42,215 nucleotides of DNA from Cyanophora paradoxa CCMP329. Taxonomy: Eukaryota; Plantae; Glaucophyta. Both the position numbers and the translations under genes were made by a program. The stretch spans positions 1 to 42,215 of the forward strand of contig QPMI01000446.1 of NCBI GenBank assembly GCA_004431415.1. The letters are read 5' to 3'. Shown here piece by piece: positions 21,848 to 41,700 of this stretch; position 1 is the stretch's first letter; each line of letters starts with the position of its first letter. The notes beneath the pieces are model-generated. The model ran no database searches. It had not been told where the DNA came from and saw nothing but the letters and a program-made list of their open reading frames with translations.

Positions 21848-21872
21848 TCCTCTCTATATATACCTGAGATTT

Positions 21873-22700
21873 CTATGGAGCAGTATCCTGCCCGAAAATG
21901 GGGAAGTATCGATTTGTGCCGTAATATTCTGCATATGTATTCTGTCTTGCAATAGCATCGGTTCTCTCAGCATAGAGAATGCATTTGTAGATACCAAATC
22001 TGGTGGCTCTCACCAAAAACTGGTAATCTTCAAGACCGAAATTCACTCCATGATAAGCAATCCCGAAATTGTCATATGGAGTGATTACAACTGCAATATT
22101 TGGGGTTCCACCCTCTACTTGACAGACAGCATAAACATCTGGTGGAATATCCACGACCACCTTGTAGTGGTCACCAATCTCAACAAGAGAATCAACTACT
22201 GATGTCTGCTCATTCACAACAATTGGGAAGATCTTGATAATATATGGTGCATTCATACTGGGGACATAGGTGCGAATTCTGGTGTTGGGATCAATGGGAT
22301 TGGGTTGATCATTTACGAAAAGAGGCGCACCAACAGCTCCACCAATCCGAAGACCATCACCAATATATGCTCCCCCCGTTTTGCAGTTAATAGCTCCCGA
22401 CCGAGATTCAAAAGAATAAGTAGAAAGAGGATCACCATAACTGTCTGGGTCTCCATAATGGGCAGAAAAGTTCGCATTTGTCACAAGGAGTTTCGTTGTC
22501 TTAACTATACCATTATTTTTATCACATCTGAGTTCCTGCAATCTCAGTTTATGGGTGGAACCAAAGGTATTCATTGTAGGTTGTACTTCTGTGGATTGGA
22601 GACCTTCTACATCATCAAAAGTAGCATGCTGCAAAACGTGATTTGCAGGTGCTGCTAATGAGAGTTGGGGTGTAATAATTCGCTCTACTGGGGCAGCCAT
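21873..22700 (-). CDS. Fibre/spike paralogue 4 (275 aa): shared N-terminal domain plus unrecognised beta-rich head
   Basis: LRLQELRCDKNNGIVKTTKLLVTNAN and GAINCKTGGAYIG align with the three neighbouring paralogues. Confidence 0.65.
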   Translation of the reverse strand: MAAPVERIITPQLSLAAPANHVLQHATFDDVEGLQSTEVQPTMNTFGSTHKLRLQELRCDKNNGIVKTTKLLVTNANFSAHYGDPDSYGDPLSTYSFESRSGAINCKTGGAYIGDGLRIGGAVGAPLFVNDQPNPIDPNTRIRTYVPSMNAPYIIKIFPIVVNEQTSVVDSLVEIGDHYKVVVDIPPDVYAVCQVEGGTPNIAVVITPYDNFGIAYHGVNFGLEDYQFLVRATRFGIYKCILYAERTDAIARQNTYAEYYGTNRYFPIFGQDTAP

Positions 22701-22723
22701 TTTACATTAAAGTAATATATAAT

Positions 22724-23569
22724 TTATGGGGTTGGGTTATCAATCACATCTGGTTCCTGGTAAAACCCTGTTTGAGAAAGAGTATCAGGAGTAACACCTC
22801 TTAGAGCTGAGACAGCAGCTATATCTGTTCTGATACCCATAACTGTAATTGTATATTTTCCAATATCTGTAACAAACAGATCATAGGTGAAATTGTTATT
22901 ATAAACACAGAACCCTGTGCCGAAATGATCATATCCTTGAACACTGAAATTGTATCTGTGACCTGGCTGGTTATTGTTGGCTCTACATAAAGAAAGCATT
23001 GCAGAAGGAATGACCAGCCCTCTCATTACTCTTTTGGTTCCTTCAATCAATTCAGAGTTTTCAAGTGTGACAGTATAACCTTGGTAAAATTGAATAATTG
23101 GCTGTTGTGCAACTGGTATATATAATCGAATTCGTTGTGGGTCTTCAACATTCTGTTCAAGAGTATCTGGGACATCATTGTATGCAATTGATGAGGAGAG
23201 TTGACCTGAAACTCTGCAACCACCACCAATAAATGCTCCACCTGATCTCACAGTTACAGCAGCAGAATTCTTGTCAAAATCGAGGGCTTTCAGGTCTACA
23301 CTGTAAGCATCAGGACCTCCATTAGTGGGTTGGAAGAAGTTCGCATTTGAGACAAGGAGTCGAGTTGTTTTAACCACACCCGAATTCTTGTCTGCTCTCA
23401 GTTCTTTAACTCGAATAATCGAATTCTTATCAAAGGAGTTACCATTGGAATTGGGTCTCTCTGTGGATTCTAAACCACGAACCTCATCATTAACTTCATG
23501 CTGGCGAAAGTGCATAGCAGGGGATCCAAGGGAATATATTGGAAGTTGAACTCGATTATATTCACCCAT
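22724..23569 (-). CDS. Fibre/spike paralogue 3 (~281 aa from ATG)
   Basis: IRVKELRADKNSGVVKTTRLLVSNAN and AAVTVRSGGAFIG; likely start MGEYNR at 23569. Confidence 0.65.
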   Translation of the reverse strand: MGEYNRVQLPIYSLGSPAMHFRQHEVNDEVRGLESTERPNSNGNSFDKNSIIRVKELRADKNSGVVKTTRLLVSNANFFQPTNGGPDAYSVDLKALDFDKNSAAVTVRSGGAFIGGGCRVSGQLSSSIAYNDVPDTLEQNVEDPQRIRLYIPVAQQPIIQFYQGYTVTLENSELIEGTKRVMRGLVIPSAMLSLCRANNNQPGHRYNFSVQGYDHFGTGFCVYNNNFTYDLFVTDIGKYTITVMGIRTDIAAVSALRGVTPDTLSQTGFYQEPDVIDNPTP

Positions 23570-23607
23570 TGCTTCTTTTACTAAGAAGGAAAGAAAAATA
23601 ATGTACA

Positions 23608-23871
23608 CTACTCTTCTGTGACATTGTTATACTCGATGCCTTTCTTTACAGTTCCCCTTTGGAATGCCTGTAATACAATCGCTTCCTTTGAGGTTGGTAT
23701 CTGAACTCCTGATGAGATGCAAGATTGGATCTCTTTCTGAACAATCTCATCAATTGCGATTCTTGCCCTGTTGTGGGCAGCATTATCAATCCAGTCCTGA
23801 ACAGAAGCAGCGCAATATTCCATTCCCAACTTTTCGGTATCAGTCAGAACTACTTGGTATATATTCGACAT
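23608..23871 (-). CDS. 87-aa protein resembling small cyanophage/marine-phage proteins encoded downstream of C1q-type fibres (possible fibre chaperone)
   Basis: YQVVLTDTEKLGMEYCAASVQDWIDNAAHNRARIAIDEIV..IPTSKEAIVLQAFQRGTVK; recalled similarity, directly downstream of a C1q ORF. Confidence 0.6.
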   Translation of the reverse strand: MSNIYQVVLTDTEKLGMEYCAASVQDWIDNAAHNRARIAIDEIVQKEIQSCISSGVQIPTSKEAIVLQAFQRGTVKKGIEYNNVTEE

Positions 23872-23890
23872 TCTAAACTACTTGTAGAAA

Positions 23891-24912
23891 TTAAATTATG
23901 CTCAGCAATTCGCCACTAAACGTTGTGAATTCTGAAATGGAAGTATCAACAGCATAAATAGAGACATTATCCCCGGCTCCAAGTCTGAGTATTGCGCTCA
24001 AAATGATTGTTTTGTTGGTTACTGTTTGTGAGTTGTTTACCCTGAAATTGAATTCTGTTGAAACATTCTGATCATTTACTTTCAGATCTACACTCACAGA
24101 TGAGGTAACAATACTATAAGAATTAAGAGAGAATCTATAATCTCCACTTATAGGCGCTGTGAATTTCCCTTCTACTACATCAAATGAGTTGGTATTATCA
24201 AAGAATTCATGCAACCAATTAGTAAGACGCCCATATACTCCACTTCTTGTTGCTACACCAAACCCAACACAAAATCGAGGTTGGGTTTCTTGCTTCAAAT
24301 AAAAGTTTGCTGCGATTGTAAGACCCCTGCATCAATTCGTGCGACTTCTGTGCTATTGCGTTTCAGAATGAGATCTACATTTGCTCCTGTATCTATTTCA
24401 GGTGTTTGAATCTTTGTGGTTGTGGTCATCACAGGGACTGTATAAGTAGGAACAAAAAGACCACCATTTGCATTCACAACACCTGTAAATGTCGTTTGGC
24501 CTGAAATTGAGACGTTTGCAGCTGAGAGTGTTCCATTCACAAAAGCTCCCGAACCTATCCATGCTCCACCTGATTTAACTACAAGTGCTGCATTATTTTC
24601 TGTCCCATCAAAAGTAACAATCTGTGGTGTGGTCACCCCACCTGCATCATCATAAATAGCTGCATCAGCAACTACACCACCTGTTAACACCTGATTCTTG
24701 TTACTTACGATTAATTGTGTGGTTCTTATTTTTCCAGCATTTCTATCACATCGAATCTCCTTGCATCTGATAATCAAATTTTGAGTAAACGAATCTGCTC
24801 CTGTGGTTTCTGTGCAAATAAACCCGGGAATAGCATCTGTAACTGTGTGGTTCAGTTGATGCAATTTAGGTGCTGCATAACAGAAAACAGGAACTGCAAT
24901 TTGGGTAGCCAT
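23891..24912 (-). CDS. Fibre paralogue 2 with C-terminal C1q domain, split into 205-aa and 135-aa ORFs by one frameshift (~340 aa if joined)
   Basis: N-part IRCKEIRCDRNAGKIRTTQLIVSNKN..ALVVKSGGAWIG; C-part QPRF..FDVVEGKFTAPISGDYRFSL..LRLGAGDNVSIY..TTFSGELL (C1q). One extra G in AGGGGTCT gives DAGGLTIAANFYLKQETQPRF. Confidence 0.75.
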
Positions 24913-24934
24913 CTATAAATTCCCAACAAAAAGT

Positions 24935-25980
24935 TTATAATCTACTGATGAGATGCCCCCCAAAACAGGTAATACCTTGTATTGTAGCATCATATTGCAT
25001 GGACGATGTCCAGGTTTGTATAACATTCACAAATTCGTTCGCATATACAGCAAAAGAAGCCTCCATATGAACACTTCGCCTTCCATTGTAAGTTGAAAAT
25101 TCTTGAACCGATTGAGGGAAAGAGCCAAATCATTCTTTCTAAATGCAACTCTACACTCCCCTGTTGATGAAGCTGTTGACATTTGAACAATGAAGAAGAA
25201 TCTATAAATTCCGGACACAGGTGCTGTAAAGGTGCCTGTGGATAATGTGATATTATTGCTTGCATCCACAAGAGTTCTGTTAAAAGCGAATCTTCTTGCT
25301 GTTGATGTGGTTCCCACAGTAACTGCTGATGTTGAATAATTTACAATACAAAACCGAGGGTGAGGAGCTTTCAGATATTTAATTAGATTTATTGAAGGGG
25401 AAACATTGTTTATGGTTGCTGTAACCACTGCATTTCTCTTGATATTGAGTGCATTCGATGATTCAATTTCAGGTGTGTTTAACATTGTGGAAAAGACACC
25501 AACACCAACTGAAAAACTACTCGCATTATATCCACCCTCAAAATTTATTGGACTCTCAAACATTCCACTTCCAGCATTTAGTATGGATGCTGTTACTGTT
25601 CCATTCACCTTTAATGCCTCTCCAAAGTATGCTCCTCCACTCTTGACTACAAGAGCGGAAGTATTACTTGTGTTACCAAAAGAAACTATCTGTGCTGTGG
25701 TAAATCCACCTACATTATCATATATTGCTGAATCTGGGACTACTTGACCTGCTTGAACCTGATTTTTATTCGAGATAATAATTCCTGTGGTTCTTATCTT
25801 GCCTCCATTCCTATCACATCGAATTTCTTTGACTCTGAGTATATTATTCTCTGTGAAAGAGGTATTACTTGAAGTTTCAGTACAAATATACCCAGGGGTT
25901 GAATCAACTACTCCATGAGAGGTGCTGTGCAGTGATTTGGCTGCAAGTTCATAGTTTGGGATTTCTAATAGAGAGGTCAT
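24935..25980 (-). CDS. Fibre paralogue 1 with C1q domain (left copy has a 1-bp deletion near 25115)
   Basis: Mirror of 32518-33564; one C fewer in TTTCCCC shifts the last ~60 codons. Confidence 0.75.
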
Positions 25981-25999
25981 CTTTATATTAATCAAATAG

Positions 26000-27694
26000 T
26001 TAAATTGCGACAGCAATGTAATGGATTGTTACAGTTTTGGATGAATTATTCATTGCATATGGATCAGTGAAAAGTTCACAAGTGAAATAGTTACTGTAAA
26101 CATTCAACAGGTTCACAGTAAAAATGACGGGAGTTACTTGATAATTTGGTTCTTGTCCTTCATGCCTTACAGTTGCTGTAACAACAGGAGGAGAAGCAAA
26201 GGCATTGGTAAAATAGATAGTAAGATTGAACACATATAGATTATTGTAATTTAAAACAGGAGTAGTGTAAACATACTTACCTGCTTGAATTTTCCCATTA
26301 AAATATGCATTGAGTTGACTGGAAAGATCTGCTTCTGTAATGCATCGACTGATGGTCGCATTATTTGAGGGGTTCATAGCATAGAAATTCCTTGCATATG
26401 CATTTCCACGAACAAGTAAGGTTTTATCAAAGTAATTCTGCGAATTGTGGAAGAACCATGTTTCTTCAAACATAGGTCCTGCTGGTTCTACAATCTGACC
26501 TGATCCTACATACATCGTGTTGTTGGCTCTAATAGTGGTTGCTGTGAATGGATCAAGAGTAGGTCGATCTGTAATATCTCCCCAAAGGTGTGTGTGAGCA
26601 AAATCTGTAATTTGAGACTTAGTATGAGTATGAGCAAAGTCTGTAATCTCACCTTTGGTGTGAGTGTGTGCAAAATCTGTTATCTCACTCTTTACATGGG
26701 TGTGAGCAAAGTCTGTAATCTCTCCTTTGGTGTGAGTGTGTGCAAAATCTGTTATCTGTGACTTTGTGTGAGTGTGTGCGAAATCTGTGATTTCAGATTT
26801 AAAATGAGTGTGAGCGAAATTCGTGATATCTGCTCTGGTGTGGAAGTGAGCAAAATCTGTTATCTGGGATTTGGTGTGAGTGTGTGCAAAATCTATAATT
26901 TCTGCCTTTGTGTGGGTGTGTGATCTATTATTCAGATCAAGGAAACTACCTGAGTATGCAACAGGGTGTAAATTGGATGGGGTGGGTTTATTGAGGAGAT
27001 CATTATAATCTCCTGTGAAAGAGATCGTTTTCAGTTCACCCCTTCCAACATAATCAGAAGGTAGGTCAATCTTAATGGGCATAATAGCTGGATCATCTGG
27101 GATCTCATACTCACCTCCTGGATGTACAACTGGGAAGGTTTGATTACTTTCAGTGTGGACAAAGAAGTTACATGCTGTCACTGTTCCATCAATTATTCCA
27201 CCTGTGAGAGGGAGGTAATCACCTGTCACACCAATATTAATACCTGCAATAATTGTATTCAGTTCTGTTTCATCTATGTAGTTTTGGGCTTGAAGGTAAT
27301 CCTCTGTTACCACTCTTGATATGGTCTCATTGTGAATATTCTTTGCTGCTGCCCTTTGATTGATTTCTAAAACTCCCTCACCAACTCCACCATTATAATT
27401 CGTTTTTATCCATGAGATTTCGCATCTCTTGTAGTCATCTCGATTTCCAATGAGAGCATTGGGTAACAATCTCTCTCTGCTGAATATTAATTTGGGTCTT
27501 GAACTATCTAAGTCACTAACATCAGTTACATTAATTTGGATTGCTGCATCTTTGTCATCATAGTTTGCTGGATCAGATGGTAGAGAGATCAATCCTCCTG
27601 TCATTGGGATGTCATCTGCATAGTAACTGGTTAAATAGATACCTGGTTTGGTGTCCATCAAACCGAAATTTCCGCCTGCTGCAATTATCTGCAT
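26000..27694 (-). CDS. HxH-repeat tail-fibre-like protein, 564 aa (left copy)
   Basis: Same translation as 30804-32498. Confidence 0.8.
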   Translation of the reverse strand: MQIIAAGGNFGLMDTKPGIYLTSYYADDIPMTGGLISLPSDPANYDDKDAAIQINVTDVSDLDSSRPKLIFSRERLLPNALIGNRDDYKRCEISWIKTNYNGGVGEGVLEINQRAAAKNIHNETISRVVTEDYLQAQNYIDETELNTIIAGINIGVTGDYLPLTGGIIDGTVTACNFFVHTESNQTFPVVHPGGEYEIPDDPAIMPIKIDLPSDYVGRGELKTISFTGDYNDLLNKPTPSNLHPVAYSGSFLDLNNRSHTHTKAEIIDFAHTHTKSQITDFAHFHTRADITNFAHTHFKSEITDFAHTHTKSQITDFAHTHTKGEITDFAHTHVKSEITDFAHTHTKGEITDFAHTHTKSQITDFAHTHLWGDITDRPTLDPFTATTIRANNTMYVGSGQIVEPAGPMFEETWFFHNSQNYFDKTLLVRGNAYARNFYAMNPSNNATISRCITEADLSSQLNAYFNGKIQAGKYVYTTPVLNYNNLYVFNLTIYFTNAFASPPVVTATVRHEGQEPNYQVTPVIFTVNLLNVYSNYFTCELFTDPYAMNNSSKTVTIHYIAVAI

Positions 27695-29075
27695 CCTTGT
27701 AGGGGTCTGATGTATAATTCACCCTGCATTTTGGTTCCTGCATCTATTCCTTTGAGATTCAGGTAATATTCATCTAATCTTAATCTCTCTGGTATGATAT
27801 TACTTTGGTAGAGAGTAACACCATGTAAGGTGTCGAAATCATCACCTGCTGATGCGAATTTTGGTTGTTCATCTATTTCGCTCCATTTATGTCTGTGATC
27901 TTCTGGTGGAAACTCTTCTGGTTTTCCATCAATATCACCCCAGTCATGCCTGTGATCCTCTGGTGGGAATTTGTCTGGTTTACCTAATATCTCATCCCAG
28001 TCATGGTTGTGATCCTCTGGTGGAAATCTGGCTGGTTTATTGTTGATCTGCTCCCAATCTGGGAAGAATTCCCAAATCTCTGGGCGAAATCCATCTGGTA
28101 ATAATTCTTCATGGGGTTCATATGGTTGCTCATAATCCACAACTGGTGGTTCGAGACCATCTGCTAAATATTCCTCATGGGGTTCATAATTCTGCTCATA
28201 TTCATACTCTTGTGGATCTAAACCATCTGGTAAATACTCTTCCTCATTGGGGTCATATTGATCATACTCATATTCCTGTGGGTCAAAACCGTCTGGTAGG
28301 TATTCCTCCTCATCTGGGACGAAGTAGTAATCATCAAGCTCCAATATATCGATTTCGGGAGGTAAATATTGCTCATCAATTTGCTTTCTTGGTTCAATTA
28401 TCGGTTTATTTCGAACCTGCTCCCAACTCACAATGTGCTGCCCAAAGGGAACTGTCTCATCTGCTGTATACTCTCTTCCTGGTTGCTTTTTGGGTGTTAA
28501 ATCTGGTGGATCCCATGGAAGAGGAAAGGGAACTGGGACAGGTCCATTAGGTCCATAATATTCAAAGATCTCTCTTATGGTCTTCTCACTTACCAGTTTC
28601 TCACCATTTGCATACACATTGCTTCCATGGATATTTCGCCATTGCCTGGTTCTGATACCAAGATCTTTGGTGTTGGTGACCAAAGGTAAAAGGTGCCTAT
28701 CCATTTCGACAAGGTCTGGGTGTAAATGAACTGTTACTGGTTGAGTGGGGCTACTGTTGACAGTGATAGACGCCTTATTCTTTGCTGTATCACCAGGTAG
28801 TTGGAAACCGAATTGTGCATTAGAAGCCGAATTCGCCACAATATCCCTTGGATAAACATTGTTAGTGAACTCGATTTTGTTGGTTTCTCCATGGGGGGCT
28901 ATCTGTAATATTTCGGGAATTTGTGCAATTGCATTTGATCCTTCATTATAGATTCTTAAACCACTCTGATGCCCACCCTTCTCATTTTGAACATTGAATA
29001 TTAACCTACCACTATCGAATCGAGTTGGAATATCTGGATGGGTTCCACTGGTTTTCAGTTTTCTTGGTCTGCTCC
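27685..29075 (-). pseudogene. 5'-truncated copy of the 550-aa fibre protein (lacks the first ~87 codons and the ATG)
   Basis: Homology to 29161-30813 stops at the inversion breakpoint 29075; no in-frame ATG upstream before a TAG. Confidence 0.8.
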
Positions 29076-29160
29076 CCCACCTGATAATGAGAGAATTACA
29101 CGAAGGGGCATCTTTACTTAACTCAAATTTAATAAATCTCTATAAGTAGAGTAAATTGGG

Positions 29161-30813
29161 ATGAGTTTCAATTATCCAGCAAACCTGCAAACCATTCCTT
29201 CATCAGGAAGAGGGAAGGCAGATAACAAACATGTAAATTTCGATAACTTGACAGCCAGAGGGTCAATCTCAATCGACCATAGTGCAGATGAACCCTCAAA
29301 GACTCACCCAAGAATGCATGCACTTTCAATAAACGAAATGGATCCTGAAAAAGAGGATGTGAGTGTTGCTTTCAGCATGGGGAATGTGAAATCGAATCAG
29401 GTAGCCCAGATTAAAGCAACCAGGAGCAGACCAAGAAAACTGAAAACCAGTGGAACCCATCCAGATATTCCAACTCGATTCGATAGTGGAAGGTTAATAT
29501 TCAATGTTCAAAACGAGAAGGGTGGGCATCAGAGTGGTTTGAGAATCTACAATGAAGGATCAAATGCAATTGCACAAATTCCCGAAATATTACAGATAGC
29601 ACCCCATGCAGAAACCAACAAAATCGAGTTCACTAACAATGTTTATCCACGAGATATTGTGGCGAATTCGGCTTCTAATGCGCAATTCGGTTTCCAACTA
29701 CCTGGTGATACAGCAAAGAATAAGGCGTCTATCACTGTCAACAGTAGCCCCACTCAACCAGTAACAATTCATTTACACCCAGACCTTGTCGAAATGGACA
29801 GGCACCTTTTACCATTGGTAACCAACACCAAAGATCTTGGTATCAGAACCAGGCAATGGCGAAATATCCATGGAAGCAATGTGTATGCAAATGGTGAGAA
29901 ACTGGTAAGTGAGAAGACCATAAGAGAGATCTTTGAATATTATGGACCTAATGGACCTGTCCCAGTTCCCTTTCCTCTTCCATGGGATCCACCAGATTTA
30001 ACACCCAAAAAGCAACCAGGAAGAGAGTATACAGCAGATGAGACAGTTCCCTTTGGGCAGCACATTGTGAGTTGGGAGCAGGTTCGAAATAAACCGATAA
30101 TTGAACCAAGAAAGCAAATTGATGAGCAATATTTACCTCCCGAAATCGATATATTGGAGCTTGATGATTACTACTTCGTCCCAGATGAGGAGGAATACCT
30201 ACCAGACGGTTTTGACCCACAGGAATATGAGTATGATCAATATGACCCCAATGAGGAAGAGTATTTACCAGATGGTTTAGATCCACAAGAGTATGAATAT
30301 GAGCAGAATTATGAACCCCATGAGGAATATTTAGCAGATGGTCTCGAACCACCAGTTGTGGATTATGAGCAACCATATGAACCCCATGAAGAATTATTAC
30401 CAGATGGATTTCGCCCAGAGATTTGGGAATTCTTCCCAGATTGGGAGCAGATCAACAATAAACCAGCCAGATTTCCACCAGAGGATCACAACCATGACTG
30501 GGATGAGATATTAGGTAAACCAGACAAATTCCCACCAGAGGATCACAGGCATGACTGGGGTGATATTGATGGAAAACCAGAAGAGTTTCCACCAGAAGAT
30601 CACAGACATAAATGGAGCGAAATAGATGAACAACCAAAATTCGCATCAGCAGGTGATGATTTCGACACCTTACATGGTGTTACTCTCTACCAAAGTAATA
30701 TCATACCAGAGAGATTAAGATTAGATGAATATTACCTGAATCTCAAAGGAATAGATGCAGGAACCAAAATGCAGGGTGAATTATACATCAGACCCCTACA
30801 AGGATGCAGATAA
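29161..30813 (+). CDS. 550-aa fibre-like protein with acidic repeats and PPEDHxHDW..I..KP repeats
   Basis: Phage-fibre motif HLLPLVTNTKDLGIRTRQWRNIH; four EEYLPDG-type acidic repeats; three 19-aa FPPEDHxHxWxxIxxKP-type repeats. May be one gene with the next ORF. Confidence 0.75.
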   Translation: MSFNYPANLQTIPSSGRGKADNKHVNFDNLTARGSISIDHSADEPSKTHPRMHALSINEMDPEKEDVSVAFSMGNVKSNQVAQIKATRSRPRKLKTSGTHPDIPTRFDSGRLIFNVQNEKGGHQSGLRIYNEGSNAIAQIPEILQIAPHAETNKIEFTNNVYPRDIVANSASNAQFGFQLPGDTAKNKASITVNSSPTQPVTIHLHPDLVEMDRHLLPLVTNTKDLGIRTRQWRNIHGSNVYANGEKLVSEKTIREIFEYYGPNGPVPVPFPLPWDPPDLTPKKQPGREYTADETVPFGQHIVSWEQVRNKPIIEPRKQIDEQYLPPEIDILELDDYYFVPDEEEYLPDGFDPQEYEYDQYDPNEEEYLPDGLDPQEYEYEQNYEPHEEYLADGLEPPVVDYEQPYEPHEELLPDGFRPEIWEFFPDWEQINNKPARFPPEDHNHDWDEILGKPDKFPPEDHRHDWGDIDGKPEEFPPEDHRHKWSEIDEQPKFASAGDDFDTLHGVTLYQSNIIPERLRLDEYYLNLKGIDAGTKMQGELYIRPLQGCR

Positions 30814-32498
30814 TTGCAGCAGGCGGAAATTTCGGTTTGATGGACACCAAACCAGGTATCTATTTAACCAGTTACTATGCAGATGACATCCCAATGACAG
30901 GAGGATTGATCTCTCTACCATCTGATCCAGCAAACTATGATGACAAAGATGCAGCAATCCAAATTAATGTAACTGATGTTAGTGACTTAGATAGTTCAAG
31001 ACCCAAATTAATATTCAGCAGAGAGAGATTGTTACCCAATGCTCTCATTGGAAATCGAGATGACTACAAGAGATGCGAAATCTCATGGATAAAAACGAAT
31101 TATAATGGTGGAGTTGGTGAGGGAGTTTTAGAAATCAATCAAAGGGCAGCAGCAAAGAATATTCACAATGAGACCATATCAAGAGTGGTAACAGAGGATT
31201 ACCTTCAAGCCCAAAACTACATAGATGAAACAGAACTGAATACAATTATTGCAGGTATTAATATTGGTGTGACAGGTGATTACCTCCCTCTCACAGGTGG
31301 AATAATTGATGGAACAGTGACAGCATGTAACTTCTTTGTCCACACTGAAAGTAATCAAACCTTCCCAGTTGTACATCCAGGAGGTGAGTATGAGATCCCA
31401 GATGATCCAGCTATTATGCCCATTAAGATTGACCTACCTTCTGATTATGTTGGAAGGGGTGAACTGAAAACGATCTCTTTCACAGGAGATTATAATGATC
31501 TCCTCAATAAACCCACCCCATCCAATTTACACCCTGTTGCATACTCAGGTAGTTTCCTTGATCTGAATAATAGATCACACACCCACACAAAGGCAGAAAT
31601 TATAGATTTTGCACACACTCACACCAAATCCCAGATAACAGATTTTGCTCACTTCCACACCAGAGCAGATATCACGAATTTCGCTCACACTCATTTTAAA
31701 TCTGAAATCACAGATTTCGCACACACTCACACAAAGTCACAGATAACAGATTTTGCACACACTCACACCAAAGGAGAGATTACAGACTTTGCTCACACCC
31801 ATGTAAAGAGTGAGATAACAGATTTTGCACACACTCACACCAAAGGTGAGATTACAGACTTTGCTCATACTCATACTAAGTCTCAAATTACAGATTTTGC
31901 TCACACACACCTTTGGGGAGATATTACAGATCGACCTACTCTTGATCCATTCACAGCAACCACTATTAGAGCCAACAACACGATGTATGTAGGATCAGGT
32001 CAGATTGTAGAACCAGCAGGACCTATGTTTGAAGAAACATGGTTCTTCCACAATTCGCAGAATTACTTTGATAAAACCTTACTTGTTCGTGGAAATGCAT
32101 ATGCAAGGAATTTCTATGCTATGAACCCCTCAAATAATGCGACCATCAGTCGATGCATTACAGAAGCAGATCTTTCCAGTCAACTCAATGCATATTTTAA
32201 TGGGAAAATTCAAGCAGGTAAGTATGTTTACACTACTCCTGTTTTAAATTACAATAATCTATATGTGTTCAATCTTACTATCTATTTTACCAATGCCTTT
32301 GCTTCTCCTCCTGTTGTTACAGCAACTGTAAGGCATGAAGGACAAGAACCAAATTATCAAGTAACTCCCGTCATTTTTACTGTGAACCTGTTGAATGTTT
32401 ACAGTAACTATTTCACTTGTGAACTTTTCACTGATCCATATGCAATGAATAATTCATCCAAAACTGTAACAATCCATTACATTGCTGTCGCAATTTAA
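30804..32498 (+). CDS. HxH-repeat tail-fibre-like protein with H-type-lectin/gp53-like C-terminus, 564 aa
   Basis: YLPLTGG, FTGDYNDLLNKP, ten 12-aa HTHTKSQITDFA-type repeats (~31577-31936), and C-terminal YFTNAFASPPVVTAT..VTIHYIAV. Confidence 0.8.
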   Translation: MQIIAAGGNFGLMDTKPGIYLTSYYADDIPMTGGLISLPSDPANYDDKDAAIQINVTDVSDLDSSRPKLIFSRERLLPNALIGNRDDYKRCEISWIKTNYNGGVGEGVLEINQRAAAKNIHNETISRVVTEDYLQAQNYIDETELNTIIAGINIGVTGDYLPLTGGIIDGTVTACNFFVHTESNQTFPVVHPGGEYEIPDDPAIMPIKIDLPSDYVGRGELKTISFTGDYNDLLNKPTPSNLHPVAYSGSFLDLNNRSHTHTKAEIIDFAHTHTKSQITDFAHFHTRADITNFAHTHFKSEITDFAHTHTKSQITDFAHTHTKGEITDFAHTHVKSEITDFAHTHTKGEITDFAHTHTKSQITDFAHTHLWGDITDRPTLDPFTATTIRANNTMYVGSGQIVEPAGPMFEETWFFHNSQNYFDKTLLVRGNAYARNFYAMNPSNNATISRCITEADLSSQLNAYFNGKIQAGKYVYTTPVLNYNNLYVFNLTIYFTNAFASPPVVTATVRHEGQEPNYQVTPVIFTVNLLNVYSNYFTCELFTDPYAMNNSSKTVTIHYIAVAI

Positions 32499-32517
32499 CT
32501 ATTTGATTAATATAAAG

Positions 32518-33564
32518 ATGACCTCTCTATTAGAAATCCCAAACTATGAACTTGCAGCCAAATCACTGCACAGCACCTCTCATGGAGTAGTTGATTCAAC
32601 CCCTGGGTATATTTGTACTGAAACTTCAAGTAATACCTCTTTCACAGAGAATAATATACTCAGAGTCAAAGAAATTCGATGTGATAGGAATGGAGGCAAG
32701 ATAAGAACCACAGGAATTATTATCTCGAATAAAAATCAGGTTCAAGCAGGTCAAGTAGTCCCAGATTCAGCAATATATGATAATGTAGGTGGATTTACCA
32801 CAGCACAGATAGTTTCTTTTGGTAACACAAGTAATACTTCCGCTCTTGTAGTCAAGAGTGGAGGAGCATACTTTGGAGAGGCATTAAAGGTGAATGGAAC
32901 AGTAACAGCATCCATACTAAATGCTGGAAGTGGAATGTTTGAGAGTCCAATAAATTTTGAGGGTGGATATAATGCGAGTAGTTTTTCAGTTGGTGTTGGT
33001 GTCTTTTCCACAATGTTAAACACACCTGAAATTGAATCATCGAATGCACTCAATATCAAGAGAAATGCAGTGGTTACAGCAACCATAAACAATGTTTCCC
33101 CTTCAATAAATCTAATTAAATATCTGAAAGCTCCTCACCCTCGGTTTTGTATTGTAAATTATTCAACATCAGCAGTTACTGTGGGAACCACATCAACAGC
33201 AAGAAGATTCGCTTTTAACAGAACTCTTGTGGATGCAAGCAATAATATCACATTATCCACAGGCACCTTTACAGCACCTGTGTCCGGAATTTATAGATTC
33301 TTCTTCATTGTTCAAATGTCAACAGCTTCATCAACAGGGGAGTGTAGAGTTGCATTTAGAAAGAATGATTTGGCTCTTTCCCCTCAATCGGTTCAAGAAT
33401 TTTCAACTTACAATGGAAGGCGAAGTGTTCATATGGAGGCTTCTTTTGCTGTATATGCGAACGAATTTGTGAATGTTATACAAACCTGGACATCGTCCAT
33501 GCAATATGATGCTACAATACAAGGTATTACCTGTTTTGGGGGGCATCTCATCAGTAGATTATAA
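32518..33564 (+). CDS. Fibre paralogue 1 with C-terminal C1q domain (348 aa from ATG)
   Basis: LRVKEIRCDRNGGKIRTTGIIISNKN..ALVVKSGGAYFG; C1q motifs HPRF..FAFNRTLVDASNNITLSTGTFTAPVSGIYRFFF..TCFGGHLI. Confidence 0.8.
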   Translation: MTSLLEIPNYELAAKSLHSTSHGVVDSTPGYICTETSSNTSFTENNILRVKEIRCDRNGGKIRTTGIIISNKNQVQAGQVVPDSAIYDNVGGFTTAQIVSFGNTSNTSALVVKSGGAYFGEALKVNGTVTASILNAGSGMFESPINFEGGYNASSFSVGVGVFSTMLNTPEIESSNALNIKRNAVVTATINNVSPSINLIKYLKAPHPRFCIVNYSTSAVTVGTTSTARRFAFNRTLVDASNNITLSTGTFTAPVSGIYRFFFIVQMSTASSTGECRVAFRKNDLALSPQSVQEFSTYNGRRSVHMEASFAVYANEFVNVIQTWTSSMQYDATIQGITCFGGHLISRL

Positions 33565-33586
33565 ACTTTTTGTTGGGAATTTATAG

Positions 33587-34607
33587 ATGGCTACCCAAAT
33601 TGCAGTTCCTGTTTTCTGTTATGCAGCACCTAAATTGCATCAACTGAACCACACAGTTACAGATGCTATTCCCGGGTTTATTTGCACAGAAACCACAGGA
33701 GCAGATTCGTTTACTCAAAATTTGATTATCAGATGCAAGGAGATTCGATGTGATAGAAATGCTGGAAAAATAAGAACCACACAATTAATCGTAAGTAACA
33801 AGAATCAGGTGTTAACAGGTGGTGTAGTTGCTGATGCAGCTATTTATGATGATGCAGGTGGGGTGACCACACCACAGATTGTTACTTTTGATGGGACAGA
33901 AAATAATGCAGCACTTGTAGTTAAATCAGGTGGAGCATGGATAGGTTCGGGAGCTTTTGTGAATGGAACACTCTCAGCTGCAAACGTCTCAATTTCAGGC
34001 CAAACGACATTTACAGGTGTTGTGAATGCAAATGGTGGTCTTTTTGTTCCTACTTATACAGTCCCTGTGATGACCACAACCACAAAGATTCAAACACCTG
34101 AAATAGATACAGGAGCAAATGTAGATCTCATTCTGAAACGCAATAGCACAGAAGTCGCACGAATTGATGCAGGGGTCTTACAATCGCAGCAAACTTTTAT
34201 TTGAAGCAAGAAACCCAACCTCGATTTTGTGTTGGGTTTGGTGTAGCAACAAGAAGTGGAGTATATGGGCGTCTTACTAATTGGTTGCATGAATTCTTTG
34301 ATAATACCAACTCATTTGATGTAGTAGAAGGGAAATTCACAGCGCCTATAAGTGGAGATTATAGATTCTCTCTTAATTCTTATAGTATTGTTACCTCATC
34401 TGTGAGTGTAGATCTGAAAGTAAATGATCAGAATGTTTCAACAGAATTCAATTTCAGGGTAAACAACTCACAAACAGTAACCAACAAAACAATCATTTTG
34501 AGCGCAATACTCAGACTTGGAGCCGGGATAATGTCTCTATTTATGCTGTTGATACTTCCATTTCAGAATTCACAACGTTTAGTGGCGAATTGCTGAGCAT
34601 AATTTAA
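33587..34607 (+). CDS. Fibre paralogue 2 with C1q domain (right copy; shared frameshift near 34172 plus an arm-specific one near 34525)
   Basis: Mirror of 23891-24912. Confidence 0.7.
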
Positions 34608-34626
34608 TTTCTACAAGTAGTTTAGA

Positions 34627-34890
34627 ATGTCGAATATATACCAAGTAGTTCTGACTGATACCGAAAAGTTGGGAATGGAATATTGCGCTGCTTCTGTTCA
34701 GGACTGGATTGATAATGCTGCCCACAACAGGGCAAGAATCGCAATTGATGAGATTGTTCAGAAAGAGATCCAATCTTGCATCTCATCAGGAGTTCAGATA
34801 CCAACCTCAAAGGAAGCGATTGTATTACAGGCATTCCAAAGGGGAACTGTAAAGAAAGGCATCGAGTATAACAATGTCACAGAAGAGTAG
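34627..34890 (+). CDS. 87-aa cyanophage-like fibre partner protein (right copy)
   Basis: Same translation as 23608-23871. Confidence 0.6.
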   Translation: MSNIYQVVLTDTEKLGMEYCAASVQDWIDNAAHNRARIAIDEIVQKEIQSCISSGVQIPTSKEAIVLQAFQRGTVKKGIEYNNVTEE

Positions 34891-34928
34891 TGTACATTAT
34901 TTTTCTTTCCTTCTTAGTAAAAGAAGCA

Positions 34929-35774
34929 ATGGGTGAATATAATCGAGTTCAACTTCCAATATATTCCCTTGGATCCCCTGCTATGCACTTTCGCCAGCAT
35001 GAAGTTAATGATGAGGTTCGTGGTTTAGAATCCACAGAGAGACCCAATTCCAATGGTAACTCCTTTGATAAGAATTCGATTATTCGAGTTAAAGAACTGA
35101 GAGCAGACAAGAATTCGGGTGTGGTTAAAACAACTCGACTCCTTGTCTCAAATGCGAACTTCTTCCAACCCACTAATGGAGGTCCTGATGCTTACAGTGT
35201 AGACCTGAAAGCCCTCGATTTTGACAAGAATTCTGCTGCTGTAACTGTGAGATCAGGTGGAGCATTTATTGGTGGTGGTTGCAGAGTTTCAGGTCAACTC
35301 TCCTCATCAATTGCATACAATGATGTCCCAGATACTCTTGAACAGAATGTTGAAGACCCACAACGAATTCGATTATATATACCAGTTGCACAACAGCCAA
35401 TTATTCAATTTTACCAAGGTTATACTGTCACACTTGAAAACTCTGAATTGATTGAAGGAACCAAAAGAGTAATGAGAGGGCTGGTCATTCCTTCTGCAAT
35501 GCTTTCTTTATGTAGAGCCAACAATAACCAGCCAGGTCACAGATACAATTTCAGTGTTCAAGGATATGATCATTTCGGCACAGGGTTCTGTGTTTATAAT
35601 AACAATTTCACCTATGATCTGTTTGTTACAGATATTGGAAAATATACAATTACAGTTATGGGTATCAGAACAGATATAGCTGCTGTCTCAGCTCTAAGAG
35701 GTGTTACTCCTGATACTCTTTCTCAAACAGGGTTTTACCAGGAACCAGATGTGATTGATAACCCAACCCCATAA
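34929..35774 (+). CDS. Fibre/spike paralogue 3 (right copy)
   Basis: Same translation as 22724-23569. Confidence 0.65.
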   Translation: MGEYNRVQLPIYSLGSPAMHFRQHEVNDEVRGLESTERPNSNGNSFDKNSIIRVKELRADKNSGVVKTTRLLVSNANFFQPTNGGPDAYSVDLKALDFDKNSAAVTVRSGGAFIGGGCRVSGQLSSSIAYNDVPDTLEQNVEDPQRIRLYIPVAQQPIIQFYQGYTVTLENSELIEGTKRVMRGLVIPSAMLSLCRANNNQPGHRYNFSVQGYDHFGTGFCVYNNNFTYDLFVTDIGKYTITVMGIRTDIAAVSALRGVTPDTLSQTGFYQEPDVIDNPTP

Positions 35775-35797
35775 ATTATATATTACTTTAATGTAAA

Positions 35798-36624
35798 ATG
35801 GCTGCCCCAGTAGAGCGAATTATTACACCCCAACTCTCATTAGCAGCACCTGCAAATCACGTTTTGCAGCATGCTACTTTTGATGATGTAGAAGGTCTCC
35901 AATCCACAGAAGTACAACCTACAATGAATACCTTTGGTTCCACCCATAAACTGAGATTGCAGGAACTCAGATGTGATAAAAATAATGGTATAGTTAAGAC
36001 AACGAAACTCCTTGTGACAAATGCGAACTTTTCTGCCCATTATGGAGACCCAGACAGTTATGGTGATCCTCTTCTACTTATTCTTTTGAATCTCGGTCGG
36101 GAGCTATTAACTGCAAAACGGGGGGAGCATATATTGGTGATGGTCTTCGGATTGGTGGAGCTGTTGGTGCGCCTCTTTTCGTAAATGATCAACCCAATCC
36201 CATTGATCCCAACACCAGAATTCGCACCTATGTCCCAAGTATGAATGCACCATATATTATCAAGATCTTCCCAATTGTTGTGAATGAGCAGACATCAGTA
36301 GTTGATTCTCTTGTTGAGATTGGTGACCACTACAAGGTGGTCGTGGATATTCCACCAGATGTTTATGCTGTCTGTCAAGTAGAGGGTGGAACCCCAAATA
36401 TTGCAGTTGTAATCACTCCATATGACAATTTCGGGATTGCTTATCATGGAGTGAATTTCGGTCTTGAAGATTACCAGTTTTTGGTGAGAGCCACCAGATT
36501 TGGTATCTACAAATGCATTCTCTATGCTGAGAGAACCGATGCTATTGCAAGACAGAATACATATGCAGAATATTACGGCACAAATCGATACTTCCCCATT
36601 TTCGGGCAGGATACTGCTCCATAG
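35798..36624 (+). CDS. Fibre/spike paralogue 4 (right copy, 1-bp deletion near 36072)
   Basis: Mirror of 21873-22700; CCTCTTCTA here versus CCTCTTTCTA in the left arm. Confidence 0.6.
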
Positions 36625-36649
36625 AAATCTCAGGTATATATAGAGAGGA

Positions 36650-36922
36650 ATGGATGATAAAACAAAGAAATTCATAGAATCTGCAATGATGGTTCATGGT
36701 GATGCTAAATTCGATTATAGTGAGACAGTGTATAAGAAAGCACAAGAGAAGGTCTCTGTTAGATGCCTTAAATGCAACAAGATCCTCCAAACCTACCCAT
36801 TTAATCATGTAAGGGGAAGTGGATGCAGAGAGTGCAACAAGAAATCCTCTCATGCTTACAGAAAAAAGACTACATCAGGAATTGTGATAGATGATAAACC
36901 AGTGGTACTGTACTTTGATTAG
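36650..36922 (+). CDS. Stand-alone Zn-ribbon (DUF723-like) protein (right copy)
   Basis: Same translation as 21575-21847. Confidence 0.75.
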   Translation: MDDKTKKFIESAMMVHGDAKFDYSETVYKKAQEKVSVRCLKCNKILQTYPFNHVRGSGCRECNKKSSHAYRKKTTSGIVIDDKPVVLYFD

Positions 36923-37068
36923 ATCTTTGAGAGAGAAATGAGGATCTTTCCCCATTTTCCCTTTGTGATTATGCATGTGTCAAAGCAGTTTGGACAGGTC
37001 TTGTGGTAGTGCAGCAGAATGATATCCACCAACTCATAAGGTAGCACTCTTGCTAAGATGGTTCGCAT
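36919..37068 (-). CDS. 49-aa small ORF (right copy)
   Basis: Mirror of 21429-21578. Confidence 0.5.
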   Translation of the reverse strand: MRTILARVLPYELVDIILLHYHKTCPNCFDTCIITKGKWGKILISLSKI

Positions 37069-37108
37069 TCTACCAATCGCGTTTTTAATTTTTCTAAATT
37101 ATTCATAA

Positions 37109-37509
37109 ATGAATACTCATCGAGGCTTCCATGTGATGCTGGATTACAAATTCAGAACCCAATTAGCAGTAGGAGTGGAAGACTTGGAGACAACGACCAG
37201 GTGGTTAATGCAGTTCTTACAAACTATTATTCAAGAGCAAGGTATTCGAGTAGTTCACAAGCATTGCGAGATTTTCGATGGTGGTATTTCTCCTCCTGGT
37301 TTTGCAATGGTTCTTCTGCTGGATGAGAGCCACTGCACTGCTCATTGTTACTCAAATGAAGGTATGCTGGCGATTGATATATTCAGTTGTGGATTAGAAG
37401 CAGAGAGAAAACCACGAGAGTATCTCATGAGATAGATGAGAGAATAACAGGTGTGTTTTCAGGGTTGGAGAAATCGGAGAAACATAGAGTATTGCGATTT
37501 CCGAGTTAG
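37109..37509 (+). CDS. speD: S-adenosylmethionine decarboxylase (right copy, 1-bp deletion in an A run near 37410)
   Basis: Mirror of 20987-21388 with ESH and DIFSCG motifs. Confidence 0.85.
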
Positions 37510-37534
37510 TTGACACTGAGAAATTCAGAATTTC

Positions 37535-38349
37535 AGATGGTCTTACTGAAATGGTCAGATAATCGGGTGTGACACCTATTTAATTGACTGTGACGCCTGT
37601 GACAGGTGTGACACCTATTTTCAAACTTTTTAAAATTCTCACAAATTACAGACTTCTGAAAACACCTGTCACACCTGTCACACCCGTCACACCCAATTAA
37701 CAAAGACTCTATTTCTTACTGAGATATTCAAGATTTATTGTTGTCTTACTGAAAACAGTCTATGTGACAGGTGTGACACCTTCAAAATCCACCCAACAAT
37801 AGTCGATTTCATGAATACCTTTCTGTCTTACTGAAAATGGTAAGGAGACCAGGTGTGACAGGTAGTTTAATTGAGTGTGACAGGTGTGACAGGTGTGACA
37901 CCTATTTTCAAACTTTCTAAATTTTTCAAAAATGACAGACTTCTGAAAACACCTGTCACACCTGTCACACCTGTCACAGACATTCTACCCCTCTTACTGA
38001 CTTTCTCAAAAACAAATATATCTATTACTGAATATCATTTGAATACTACCTGTCACACTTGAATTCAATTATTCTGTTTTATAGAACATATGCAATCTAA
38101 TCGATTGTTCAATTGGAGACCATGCAACTCTGTGACACTTTTTCGATCTAAAATATAAATCCGCAATCTCATCGATTGTTTAATTGGACATAATGCAGTT
38201 CCGATATATTCCAATAGAAAATCCCGCAATCTAATCGATTGTTTAATGGGAGATAATGCAACTCTGTGACACTTTTTCGGTGCAAAAATGTACATCAGCA
38301 ATCTCATCGATTGTTCAATTGGACACAATGCAACTCTGTGACACTTTTT
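37535..38349. repeat. Mirror copy of the iteron-like array and ~70-bp subterminal repeats
   Basis: Reverse complement of 20144-20960. Confidence 0.85.
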
Positions 38350-38669
38350 GCGTTTTTCGATACAGAATGGGCGGTGGTCTACTTCAATACATGAGAGATA
38401 TATCGAGTTTATGCGAATTTATGCAATTTAATCGCAATTATATCGATCTTTAAGCAGTTTAATGTTAATCTATCGCAGATTTGTATGTAAACAACAAAGT
38501 ACATAATCAATCGATATAAGATCAATTGAATCTATCGAAGTTTAATCGAAAATATGCATTTTGGTAAACGCGTTTTCATTTTTAATACAAAGTTTGCATT
38601 ATTTTATACAAAGTTTGCATAAAAAGTTTAAGAAATTAATCGAAAAATATGTATTTTAGTATTAAATTA

Positions 38670-38764
38670 ACACATATTGAAAAACGAATTTAAATCCAGA
38701 GTGAATCGAGATCGCGAAGCGATCGAGATGAACGAGGGATTTAAATTCGTTTTTCAATATGTGT
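38670..38764 (+). other. Terminal hairpin, right copy (G.A strand is the + strand here)
   Basis: ACACATATTGAAAAACGAATTTAAATCC-AGAGTGAATCGA-GATCGC-GAA-GCGATC-GAGATGAACGAG-GGATTTAAATTCGTTTTTCAATATGTGT. Confidence 0.8.
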
Positions 38765-41700
38765 GCCGCGCGCGCTGGGCCGGGGTCAATCTACATCTGC
38801 CCCGTGCATGTTCGTGCCCTACTACTCTTTCATTAGATCCAGATTCCCCCCTTGCACCCCGGCGCGCCAAAACGCGGCCGGGCCACTAGTATTATATCTG
38901 CGGTTATTCTGACGGCCGCGGGGCGGGGAACGATGGGAAATCGGAAAACAGGGCGCACTTGGTGATCCAATTGTGCGGATAGCGAGGAGAAGGGCGGTGC
39001 AGCCACTTTTATATGCGACGCAGCGGGTTTCACACCATTGATAAAAATCTGAGTTAATGTTCGAATTTAAAATGGAAGGCAGACCTCGGGCGTTGATGAT
39101 GCCGGGGTGGGCGGCGAGGATTTCGCGCACCGCCTGGGGGCGCCCCGAAGCAGCAGCGATGTGCAGCACCGACCGGCCGCGGGCGTCGGTCTTGGATTCG
39201 TCGGCGCCCAGCGCTAGGAGCACTTCGCGCGGGAAATCGATCTTGCAAGAAAGATCCCTGAGAGGGATGAGACAGGCGGGCTGCGCGAGGCTCGTGAGCG
39301 CGGAGCGAAGGGGAGACCTAAGGGAGGCCGGCTCACTCTGTCGCCAAGAAGGCGTGGAGGGGGGGAGGCCCGCGCTCGCCCCAGGTCGCTCATTAACGAG
39401 GCGGGCGGCACCCAGTCCCGGAGCAACTGATTGATGACGGGTTAGAGGCCGGAGAAGCCCACTGCAGCTGGCAGCTGCAGGGGATGCATATATACACTCA
39501 CGTTCGGAACCTGGCCGACGAGCTGTCGGTCTGCAGCGCGTCTTGGCGCACTCCGCAGCTGAAGTGAACTTGGGCTGCGATATTCCCGCTCAAACTGGAT
39601 TGGAAACTGCAAGTAACACCAAGAAAAGGTATCTAGCTAGAGTGCTATAGCTAGCGCTGTACATGTGCGCACCCTCTTTTTGGGCGAAAAGATGGAGCAC
39701 CGATGCGCAGGCATGACAATCGCGGACGCGAATTGATCATGAAAAGCTGTGGCCCTGATATCACGAGCGAAATCGATACGCTCATGGGAGCCTCGGAAAC
39801 GGGCTGACCGATTTCGCTTCGCGCTTCAAGCTGAAGTGCCCCGTAGTCGGGTAGGGCGGAGACTGTGGATCGGAGCCGCGGCCATGGAGGGGCGGCAGGA
39901 ATATGAGGGGATCGATGGTGGCGAGAAGATCAGATAGAGGACGCGGTGCATGCGCACCAGGGGTCTTCCTGTGCCCGAAAGCGAGTCGGCCGGCACCGGC
40001 GCGAGCGGGTCCGCCCCGAACTCCTCACGAGCCGCTGCGCCGCCGCAAAGTACTGCCAAGCGCGGCGCTCGAGTCAAAGCGGGGACCGATGAGCGAATTC
40101 AACAAAGCATATATAGCGGGGGAGCAAATGTGCAAAGGTACCCCCGAATACATAGCGGAGAGGAAGAGCGTGGATCCGTCTTGGAGGCGAGCGTCGATGC
40201 CCGCGCAGCGCTGGACCACCGGCAGAAGCTTCATGACCTGGGCATAATAAATAATGCGCGCCGCACGATTTTGATGCGCGCGCGCATGAAATCGAAGGTG
40301 CATCAAAATATCGATGCTAGGATTTTATACAACACGTACAAACCTTCGCGTAGACTGCTCGCGCTCGCGGGGAGTTCGAGTAGGGTGGCGTCGACAGGAC
40401 AACGAGTTCTGTCATCTACAAGGACTAGAAAATAAATACACATGTACATACGGCGCGGATCCCGGGCCCGGATCTGGAAAACATGTGGGGCCCAACGTTC
40501 ACGCACCAGCTTGAGAAGTTCTTTCGAGTAACGGAGACACGCGTGCCTGCAGCGTTGCCTTCAGGCCCTTGGCGCTCCTGCGAGGCGAAGTCGAAGGTGT
40601 GCAAACGGACGTGAAGCTCTACAAGGCAAACTTGACATGAAAAGTCCGCGCACCAGTGGCGTAGCTTGCTCAAGTGGGTTCGAGCGAGCGTGAAGTGCCA
40701 GTCCGAAGGCGGCTCCTTTAACGGATGGACCTGTTCGCAGATGCGAGCTCGCTTAAACTGGACGAGTTCTTAAAGTTCAGAGAACGTTAGCCACAAGGAA
40801 AAGCTCTTTGAGAGACGGAAGGCGGGCGAGGAATTGCGACAGATTCCGCTCGTCGCAGATGGTGCGGGACGATCTAGCTCCTCAAGCCGCGGGCCTGCGC
40901 GGTTTAAGTAAAGTACGCAACTAGCTATAATATATATCTGTTCGAATTCTGAAAACGGAAAACTCGCACTCGATGTCGGCGAAAGCATGCAGAATGCTCG
41001 AAGCGTGCGCTGCAGGCCAGCTCTCCTCGGAGTGCTATCTCGGGCCTTCCGAGAGAACTCGTCTGCAACGAGGAAGGTGTCGCTGCGCGTGGCGAGGCAT
41101 CAGCAGCGGGAAATCCAGCGGCCATGCGCATGGGGCACAAGCGGCGAGTGCCGCGCCTTAGGTACAGCTTGGTGAGCTTCTCGCTGCAGGACTTGAGCAC
41201 CGAGGCGAGGCAGCTCGCCGTGATGGAGACGTCCGACGCGTTCAGGTGAATGAGGTTCTAGGGGACCGTTGCATAATATAATAGAAATTCGAAGAAGCTC
41301 GATATCAAATCGTAGCGCACTGGCATCTGAGGGAGGGTCTTCCAACGTAGGAACGCACGAGCATCGTGCGATTAATATTCGAAATCAAGTGTTCGTTCGT
41401 CTCCTCGTAGCGACAGCTCTCCATATGTCCGAGAAAGCTCGATATGCTGAGATGGGTCAGGTTCGGGCAGTACGAAACGCCTCTGACCGCGTCCGCCCCG
41501 ACAAATGAGCGAGTCCCGAGATGCAAAGGCGGCGAAATGCCGCCGTGCCGTCTGCACGAGCCGACGAAGAAAGACGGCGGATCGTCGTGGCGAAAGCGAG
41601 GGCTATCCCACAGCGAGGGATCTCCGCTCAGCGCGCGTAGTCTCCTGTTCACAAGTGCCACTGGAGCGAGGCCCCGCGCGCTTCCTTCACTAAATTCGAC

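Follow-up and report, generated by a model that had tools for sequence, protein, structure and literature searches.

Four tandem genes with a shared base domain and differing heads, candidate trimeric attachment fibres of a probably Polinton-like element in Cyanophora paradoxa

What is encoded by four neighboring genes whose products begin alike and end differently? This question is raised by positions 32518 to 36624 of contig QPMI01000446.1 from the glaucophyte Cyanophora paradoxa CCMP329, of which the whole analyzed stretch of 42,215 nucleotides is called the window here. The four genes (ORF1 to ORF4) lie in an AT-rich element, and our best explanation, to which we assign a probability of roughly 60%, is that they specify the attachment fibres of an integrated virus, probably a Polinton-like one (PLV): short trimers whose base is constant and whose binding tips can be exchanged. 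A preliminary description had proposed a modular spike in which differing heads are carried by a shared base. This proposal is supported by the turnover of heads within the family, by head types of trimeric fibres, by a homotrimer model that passed and by fibre-like neighboring genes, and neither result named beforehand as speaking against it, a match of the base to a known non-structural family or models without a trimeric fibre, was obtained. The virion anchoring and the multi-receptor host-range system that were also proposed remain conjectural, so that the interpretation as a whole is partly supported.

The four ATG starts are located at 32518, 33587, 34929 and 35798, as had been described, and the encoded proteins indeed have an N-terminal domain of ~125 aa in common (N-domain). 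Its alignment contains 26 invariant columns, among them P8, H18, H22, D26, G30, T34-E35, F42, R49, E52, R54, D56, N58, G60, T64-T65, N71, N73, A109, G115-G116-A117 and G120. The 'AA' of the motif first given for the domain is not invariant. Identity among the four N-domains is 33-58%, the bases of ORF1 and ORF2 being the closest to each other among the window's four, and the local scores of all six pairs of N-termini (151-384) were far above the shuffle maximum of 58 (1000 shuffles per pair). The domain had not been recognized in the preliminary description, and no match to it was found in Pfam, PHROGs, NCBIfam or PDB sequences; no known non-structural family was matched. A tblastn search against 50,697 phage records was empty, and the best Atlas score, 0.89, was obtained to unnamed clusters. 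Published sources are cited throughout for the parts available to us, and those of PMC12344493, PMC8502044, bioRxiv 10.64898/2026.06.19.733378 and PMC7242381 contained nothing on the N-domain. Judged by these sequence comparisons, the base domain is real and undescribed and appears to be new; the design that it serves is already known from phage tailspikes.

Beyond the N-domain the proteins diverge into two classes of head, the only ones in the window. ORF1 (32518..33564, plus strand, 348 aa) consists of the N-domain (aa ~1-128), a beta-rich linker and a C1q head (aa 228-344), and ORF2 (33587..34607, plus strand, ~339 aa when read through with X) likewise comprises N-domain, linker and C1q head. 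Both heads had been called C1q at first sight and both score above the Pfam cut-off (PF00386; ORF1 27.3 bits, ORF2 head 36.7 bits, cut-off 23.7). In ORF3 (34929..35774, plus strand, 281 aa) and ORF4 (35798..36624, plus strand) the N-domain is joined to beta-sandwich heads, which are related to each other as had been suggested (31/116 identical, z 8.6; HMM E 1e-7), while their scores against the C1q heads are at chance level (z at most 2.5). The sequences quoted earlier as the ends of these two proteins are present, but lie 20-30 residues upstream of the stops and are not the true ends.

One reading of such an array is that it is an artefact of assembly or a decayed duplication without function. 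The regions 16246-29075 and 29423-42215 form a 12.8-kb inverted repeat (99.5% identical, 347-nt spacer) that includes host flank, and the second copy of the four-gene cluster (21873..25980, minus strand) lies within this repeat and is not independent evidence. The arms differ mainly by one-base gaps, with 38 runs in the right arm and 4 in the left. Next to the fold 13 substitutions were found, 10 of them at third codon positions, and two of the near-fold substitutions (29601, 29609) match letters in short-read contigs. The inverted duplication is probably an assembly fold-back. Moreover, two of the four genes are broken where they had first been placed: the starts were right, but ORF2 and ORF4 are frameshifted. 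ORF4 is split in the right arm by a one-base gap (35798-36184 / 36241-36624) and whole in the left arm (275 aa, 21873-22700, minus strand). ORF1 is whole in the right arm and frameshifted in its left-arm copy, and 32838-33567 is matched by a short-read contig without any difference. ORF2 as called (33587-34204) is severed from its C1q part (34201-34607) by a frame break near 34200, found in both arms, and a second break lies near 34528 in the right arm. The first break is spanned by contigs 18 (run X6) and 25 (X7) and the second by contig 20 (X6), each of them one letter longer than the assembly, and a third contig excludes a gap before 34129. The contigs crossing the first break differ from the assembly at 8 and 12 other places and may derive from other copies. 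Because the crossing contigs are one letter longer and a gap before 34129 is excluded, the ORF2 breaks are probably assembly errors. The frameshift of ORF4 in the right arm is probably an error of this kind as well. For the array itself an artefact is largely refuted already and we regard it as very improbable, as the paralogues are only 33-58% identical, homologues exist elsewhere, and short-read contigs cover the array (all 30 bins in 4/4 DNA runs), bridge ORF1 and ORF2 (contig 10 of run X2) and carry one letter more across the breaks.

To which proteins is the N-domain attached elsewhere? An HMM search of 1.84 billion representatives yielded 8 matches, 7 covering the N-domain and one (P0009) only its last part, and word-based searches added P0001 and P0023-P0026. 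The N-domain is rare: the family consists of five metagenomic proteins, the remainder being C. paradoxa gene models (>20), and among the Cyanophora models 21 of 22 accessions carry it, plus four further clusters. At least four unrelated head types occur in the family. The C1q type is found in ORF1, ORF2, P0004-P0006, P0015 and P0025, the ORF3/ORF4 type also in P0001 and P0002, which are orthologues of ORF4, a type resembling the Peptidase_G2 (tail-spike) chaperone in P0007, P0012 and P0013, and a separate type in P0023. For the end of P0007 an Atlas score of 0.95 was obtained, with 192/256 features shared and PF11962 on 69% of the cluster, and phrog_34132 was matched at E 6e-44, but no Pfam match was seen at E 0.1.

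The N-domains of the Cyanophora proteins P0006, P0007, P0015 and P0023 are 83-93% identical. Counted per 25-aa block, identity in the Cyanophora proteins is 60-100% and falls to 8-44% beyond residue 125, with a sharp drop directly after the GGAxxG motif, and the head of P0006 resembles those of P0007 and P0023 at the level of chance (z -0.7 and -0.6). Between P0004 and P0005, identity amounts to 76% for the bases but only 40/123 for the heads. Near-identical bases with unrelated heads are, as far as sequences can tell, the signature of head swapping and the best evidence for head exchange. The ORF2 head scores 126-133 against P0004, P0015 and P0025 and only 84 against the ORF1 head. In contigs of 3/4 DNA runs an ORF2-like start is joined to an ORF1-like continuation within the base (33722 to 32667), which hints at a mosaic copy or a third allele.

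Three-dimensional models were calculated next to these comparisons. In the AlphaFold2 monomer of ORF4 the head (residues ~130-250) forms a beta-sandwich (block pLDDT 57-89). Its top matches, at Z 4.3-5.0, are to phage fibre or spike tips and to H-type lectins, led by 7eea (Z 5.0), 2ccv (4.8) and 4mtm (4.6); these values lie within the common-fold range, with Foldseek E at least 0.03. Foldseek matches in the viral library were discarded, as their rmsd was mostly above 10. A fold search with the N-domain model gave no match at Z 2 or more, the model being too poor for the search to mean anything. ORF4, the only one of the four genes modeled as a trimer, reached 0.53 as a homotrimer, compared with 0.00 for the best of three controls, with at least 64% of the contacts shared between runs and a pLDDT of 51-52. 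The mark for a complex was reached by 21/30 solved pairs and 0/23 single chains (eukaryotes 17/29 and 0/30), counts that were calibrated on two copies and apply to the trimer only roughly. Confident trimer contacts were obtained for residues 57-81, 94-132 and the head, that is from the second half of the N-domain onward. In these models the shared region seems to be a trimerising shaft preceded by a conserved front, a candidate anchor. The C1q heads and the heads resembling the Peptidase_G2 chaperone are of trimeric fibre types, and we consider it very likely that the products are trimeric fibre-type proteins.

A trimer could also be mixed. The paralogues might be subunits (ORF1 with ORF2, ORF3 with ORF4, or 1:1:1) that use the N-domain as a register for co-assembly, so that one or two fibres instead of four alternatives would result. 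The genes fall into two like pairs by length (348 and ~339 aa; 281 and 275 aa), and complement C1q is itself a heterotrimer. In the virophage DSLV2 three consecutive tail genes form a heterotrimer according to co-purification (PMC12724248). However, the ORF4 homotrimer passes alone, four genes are no triplet, no relationship exists between heads of the C1q and the ORF4 type (z at most 2.5), and proteins with a unique head, P0007 for instance, point to trimers that need no partner. A mixed assembly is therefore an unlikely explanation, although the foremost among the rivals.

How would fibres with a constant base and exchangeable tips work? Residues ~57-132 are predicted to wind three chains into a beta-rich shaft that runs on into the trimeric head. 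The conserved residues ~1-56 would dock the trimer on the capsid, at a vertex protein or a longer fibre, and may fold only there; the odds that docking occurs through this front half of the N-domain are about even. C1q and lectin-like heads would bind surface glycans or proteins at entry, and that several distinct receptors are served at once is conceivable, if somewhat doubtful. Recombination within the conserved base or directly behind it would replace the heads, and replacements may be drawn from other integrated copies and from a phage-type pool. A more far-reaching proposal, in which the shared domain is a capsid-docking socket that mounts several fibres at once and the integrated copies form a cassette library whose tips are swapped by recombination, so that attachment is diversified from the host chromosome, is speculative and, in our estimate, unlikely to hold in full. 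To our knowledge, the attachment of PLVs to cells or helper viruses and the fixing of fibres on their capsids are largely inferred from analogy.

The same residues can be read in another way. Across 12-20 sequences H18, H22, E35, E52 and D56 never or hardly ever vary, and the N-domain might use its invariant His, Glu and Asp to bind a metal or a partner in proteins that are no part of a virion, such as immune-like lectins, factors directed against giant viruses or factors co-opted by the host; the front half of the N-domain has no structure that would contradict this. In four runs guessed to be RNA an ORF4-like allele was detected: a contig ~90% identical covers all of ORF4 in three runs and part of it in the fourth, and it has a six-base insertion and an open frame where the right-arm ORF4 breaks, a weak hint that another ORF4 copy is transcribed. 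Missing cover of the ORF1 head and of ORF2 in these runs was not taken as evidence. A role outside the virion is nevertheless improbable given the fibre-gene neighborhood, the tail-spike-chaperone-like head on one member, the trimer contacts in the shaft and the absence of a signal or membrane segment. No hydrophobic membrane segment was detected in 6/6 proteins checked (19-residue hydropathy at most 1.39), as expected for proteins that are assembled inside the cell.

The phage-type pool of heads is proposed because the C1q head together with a small gene also occurs in cyanophage-like contigs. Between ORF2 and ORF3 lies an 87-aa gene without N-domain (34627..34890, plus strand), for which 23 homologous loci with 47-52% identity were found in viral contigs. 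In 17/23 of them a C1q gene lies within 56 bases of the homologue; in three of the six loci without adjacent C1q gene the match lies at the edge of the locus, and the 23 include many near-duplicates. We take three of the loci to be T4-type cyanophage. The N-domain profile had no match in the 23 viral loci (best E 6.6). Phages and the element thus appear to have the cassette of C1q and small gene in common, each on a different base, and the 87-aa protein is possibly a partner in fibre assembly.

Such a cassette has presumably bacterial ligands in the cyanophage-like contigs, which bears on the target of the fibres. They could be real fibres that grip a helper giant virus or prey bacteria for entry; tail proteins of DSLV2 bind Synechococcus LPS in a hitch-hiking model (PMC12724248). 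Alternatively, ORF3 and ORF4 could be structural decoration or adaptor trimers, in line with the well-conserved ORF4 head. We hold this pair of possibilities to be less likely still than mixed trimers. Compared with our best explanation, only the target is another one; the shared domain fused to unrelated heads, the three-chain shaft and the docking step are common to both.

The part of the AT-rich element in the right arm spans 29076..38764 (GC 0.389, flanks 0.57-0.61) and is truncated by the fold of the inverted repeat; the window holds ~9.7 kb of the element with one end only, and the four genes lie near that end. Along the plus strand the order is two fibre-like genes, ORF1, ORF2, the 87-aa gene, ORF3, ORF4, a zinc-finger gene, a gene for S-adenosylmethionine decarboxylase (AdoMet_dc), repeats and a hairpin. 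The first fibre-like gene (29161..30813, 550 aa) has repeats matching phage tail and tail-fibre PHROGs, and the second (30804..32498, 564 aa) has His repeats resembling the phage tail repeat (PTR) and an end resembling H-type lectins, both matches (PTR and H_lectin) being below the Pfam cut-off; neither carries the N-domain. The 90-aa zinc-finger gene (36650..36922) resembles accessory domains of phage endonucleases, and AdoMet_dc (37109..37509) scores 43.1 bits (left arm 133 aa, 20987-21388, minus strand). The non-coding element end (37510..38764) consists of short repeats followed by a terminal hairpin (38670-38764, also 19729-19823) of 95 nt, whose stem pairs perfectly over 28 bp and whose inner loop reads GCGAAGC (z -10.4). 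This hairpin could be an origin or a terminal structure for replication or integration.

The element is a multicopy family, since many variant contigs were found (1452-2293 contigs per run on 10.4 kb in four DNA runs) and differing flanks join its hairpin end at 38765-38766. Among the runs listed, at least half of the sampled words were present in 16 runs of one organism. A PLV is expected to be inserted in many copies into a unicellular eukaryote and to stand out by its base composition, as the AT-rich element does, and the accessory genes AdoMet_dc and a PTR and H-lectin fibre are of PLV type, which is supportive, not diagnostic. In the available parts of one survey, AdoMet_dc is present in 66/156 glaucophyte PLVs and listed for only 4/19 host groups, while a PTR and H-lectin gene like the 564-aa ORF is described from one C. 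paradoxa PLV (Table S6 and text, PMC12220804). Because both genes occur in described PLVs, the element is likely a PLV. Pattern scans for the genomic context confirmed 0/72 matches in viral contigs with the four-sequence alignment and 0/15 with P0004, 0/257 in metagenome contigs (twice, with near-identical patterns) and 0/153 in prokaryote genomes; as such scans depend on exact short words, they say little about absence.

Several results weigh against attachment fibres of a PLV with exchangeable tips. Residues 1-128 of the ORF4 monomer have a pLDDT under 50 (24-36 per block), the N-domain alone has a mean pLDDT of 46, and residues 1-56, the proposed anchor, are outside the confident trimer contacts and without confident structure in three models. 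The likeness of the ORF4 head to fibre tips and H-type lectins is weak (best Z 5.0, rmsd 2.2, 68 aligned). The complex mark was reached by only 1/7 eukaryotic proteins without older solved relative, and so the pass of the trimer may come from its likeness to solved fibres. ORF4 is conserved along its whole length, its head being identical to those of P0001 and P0002 at 102/150 and 101/150 positions, and is therefore unlike a fast-changing receptor tip. In a tree of the C1q heads 0/4 branches were supported, so that swapping between ORF1 and ORF2 themselves is not demonstrated. ORF2 is broken in both arms of the assembly. Finally, no capsid, penton, ATPase or integrase gene was found in the window; with the core viral genes outside it, the PLV label rests on circumstantial genes.

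Some further observations concern the family and its surroundings. P0009 was dropped from the family, as it matches the last ~25 residues only, as a repeat; it is a protein of 761 aa whose start resembles a signal sequence and which contains ~ten repeats similar to the N-domain's end, so that the last motif of the shaft part recurs there. P0011 was excluded from the counts because it lacks the N-domain. P0026 is apparently a fused gene model, in which a PTR-like repeat upstream of the N-domain only hints at a shared gene order. Within ORF3, 310 bases (34954-35265) are skipped in contigs of three runs guessed to be RNA, which corresponds to a deleted copy with most of the N-domain gone. Summed contig depth over ORF3 and ORF4 exceeded that over the ORF1 head and ORF2, in keeping with variable C1q tips, but this was not counted, as contig depth cannot rank genes. 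The 550- and 564-aa genes contain 22-aa acidic, 19-aa and 12-aa His-rich repeats (30190-30609, 31525-31931) whose copy number varies among contigs. Variants of AdoMet_dc also appear in the runs guessed to be RNA, and in one contig the zinc-finger region is replaced (joint 36623-37292). A start-motif scan returned nothing, and Rfam gave five sub-threshold miRNA hairpin matches only.

Outside the element, the flanking ORFs look eukaryotic (fibronectin III repeats, F-box, ankyrin), and the host flank at 7732-14741 holds ~12 tandem copies of a ~585-bp unit, ~99% identical, that encodes fibronectin III repeats. A GC-rich high-copy repeat at 38765-38890 abuts the element and has a short hairpin, CTAG and T at its end, which we take to resemble the 3' end of a Helitron. 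Differing flanks occur on both sides of this repeat, and the element may have inserted into a mini-Helitron.

Docking, ligand binding and head exchange can be put directly to the test in the N-domain family: its proteins are small (270-400 aa) and look soluble, their tips vary naturally on an unchanging base, and one set is present in a cultured alga with >20 gene models. The finding is less surprising than it might be, modularity of this kind being familiar from phages.

How does the four-gene set compare with known systems? Fibres of described PLVs are alike in being phage-like fibres of integrated protist viruses, with a PTR and H-lectin gene, a C-terminal chaperone and AdoMet_dc (PMC12220804; Gezel-14T Ltf), but most of those described consist of one long protein equipped with S74 chaperones, laminin G or BppL domains. 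C1q had 0 occurrences in the text and two supplement files of PMC12220804 available to us, nor was such a shared base found there. In a full-text coverage mostly without subscription journals, the one paper returned for C1q and Polintons concerned a clam genome, and 'C1q domain' did not occur among the further related papers listed. The virophage DSLV2, a small protist-associated virus, also has consecutive paralogous fibre genes with a conserved collar and a variable binding region (PMC12724248). Its genes, however, are T4 gp37-like, three in number, form a heterotrimer and lie next to a minor capsid gene, whereas the C. paradoxa element has four genes whose heads are of C1q or beta-sandwich type, and its homotrimer model passed. 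In Ackermannviridae, TSP1-4 are four clustered trimeric receptor-binding genes with conserved N-termini and variable C-terminal modules, and a conserved motif was proposed as swap point (PMC8432352); unlike here, the spikes are enzymatic beta-helices mounted on the baseplate of tailed phages, and the N-domain has no sequence match there, judged by PHROGs, PDB and the 50,697 phage records. In C1q genes from variable islands of marine phages, which lie beside tail-fibre genes, the N-terminus is conserved and the C1q head hypervariable (PMC3909814), and the eBAP anchors of eCIS fibres carry C1q, H-lectin or chaperone ends (PMC12923769), both on prokaryotic hosts and tails. A member of none of these groups by sequence, the four-gene set would work like Ackermannviridae tailspikes, eCIS fibres and phage C1q islands.

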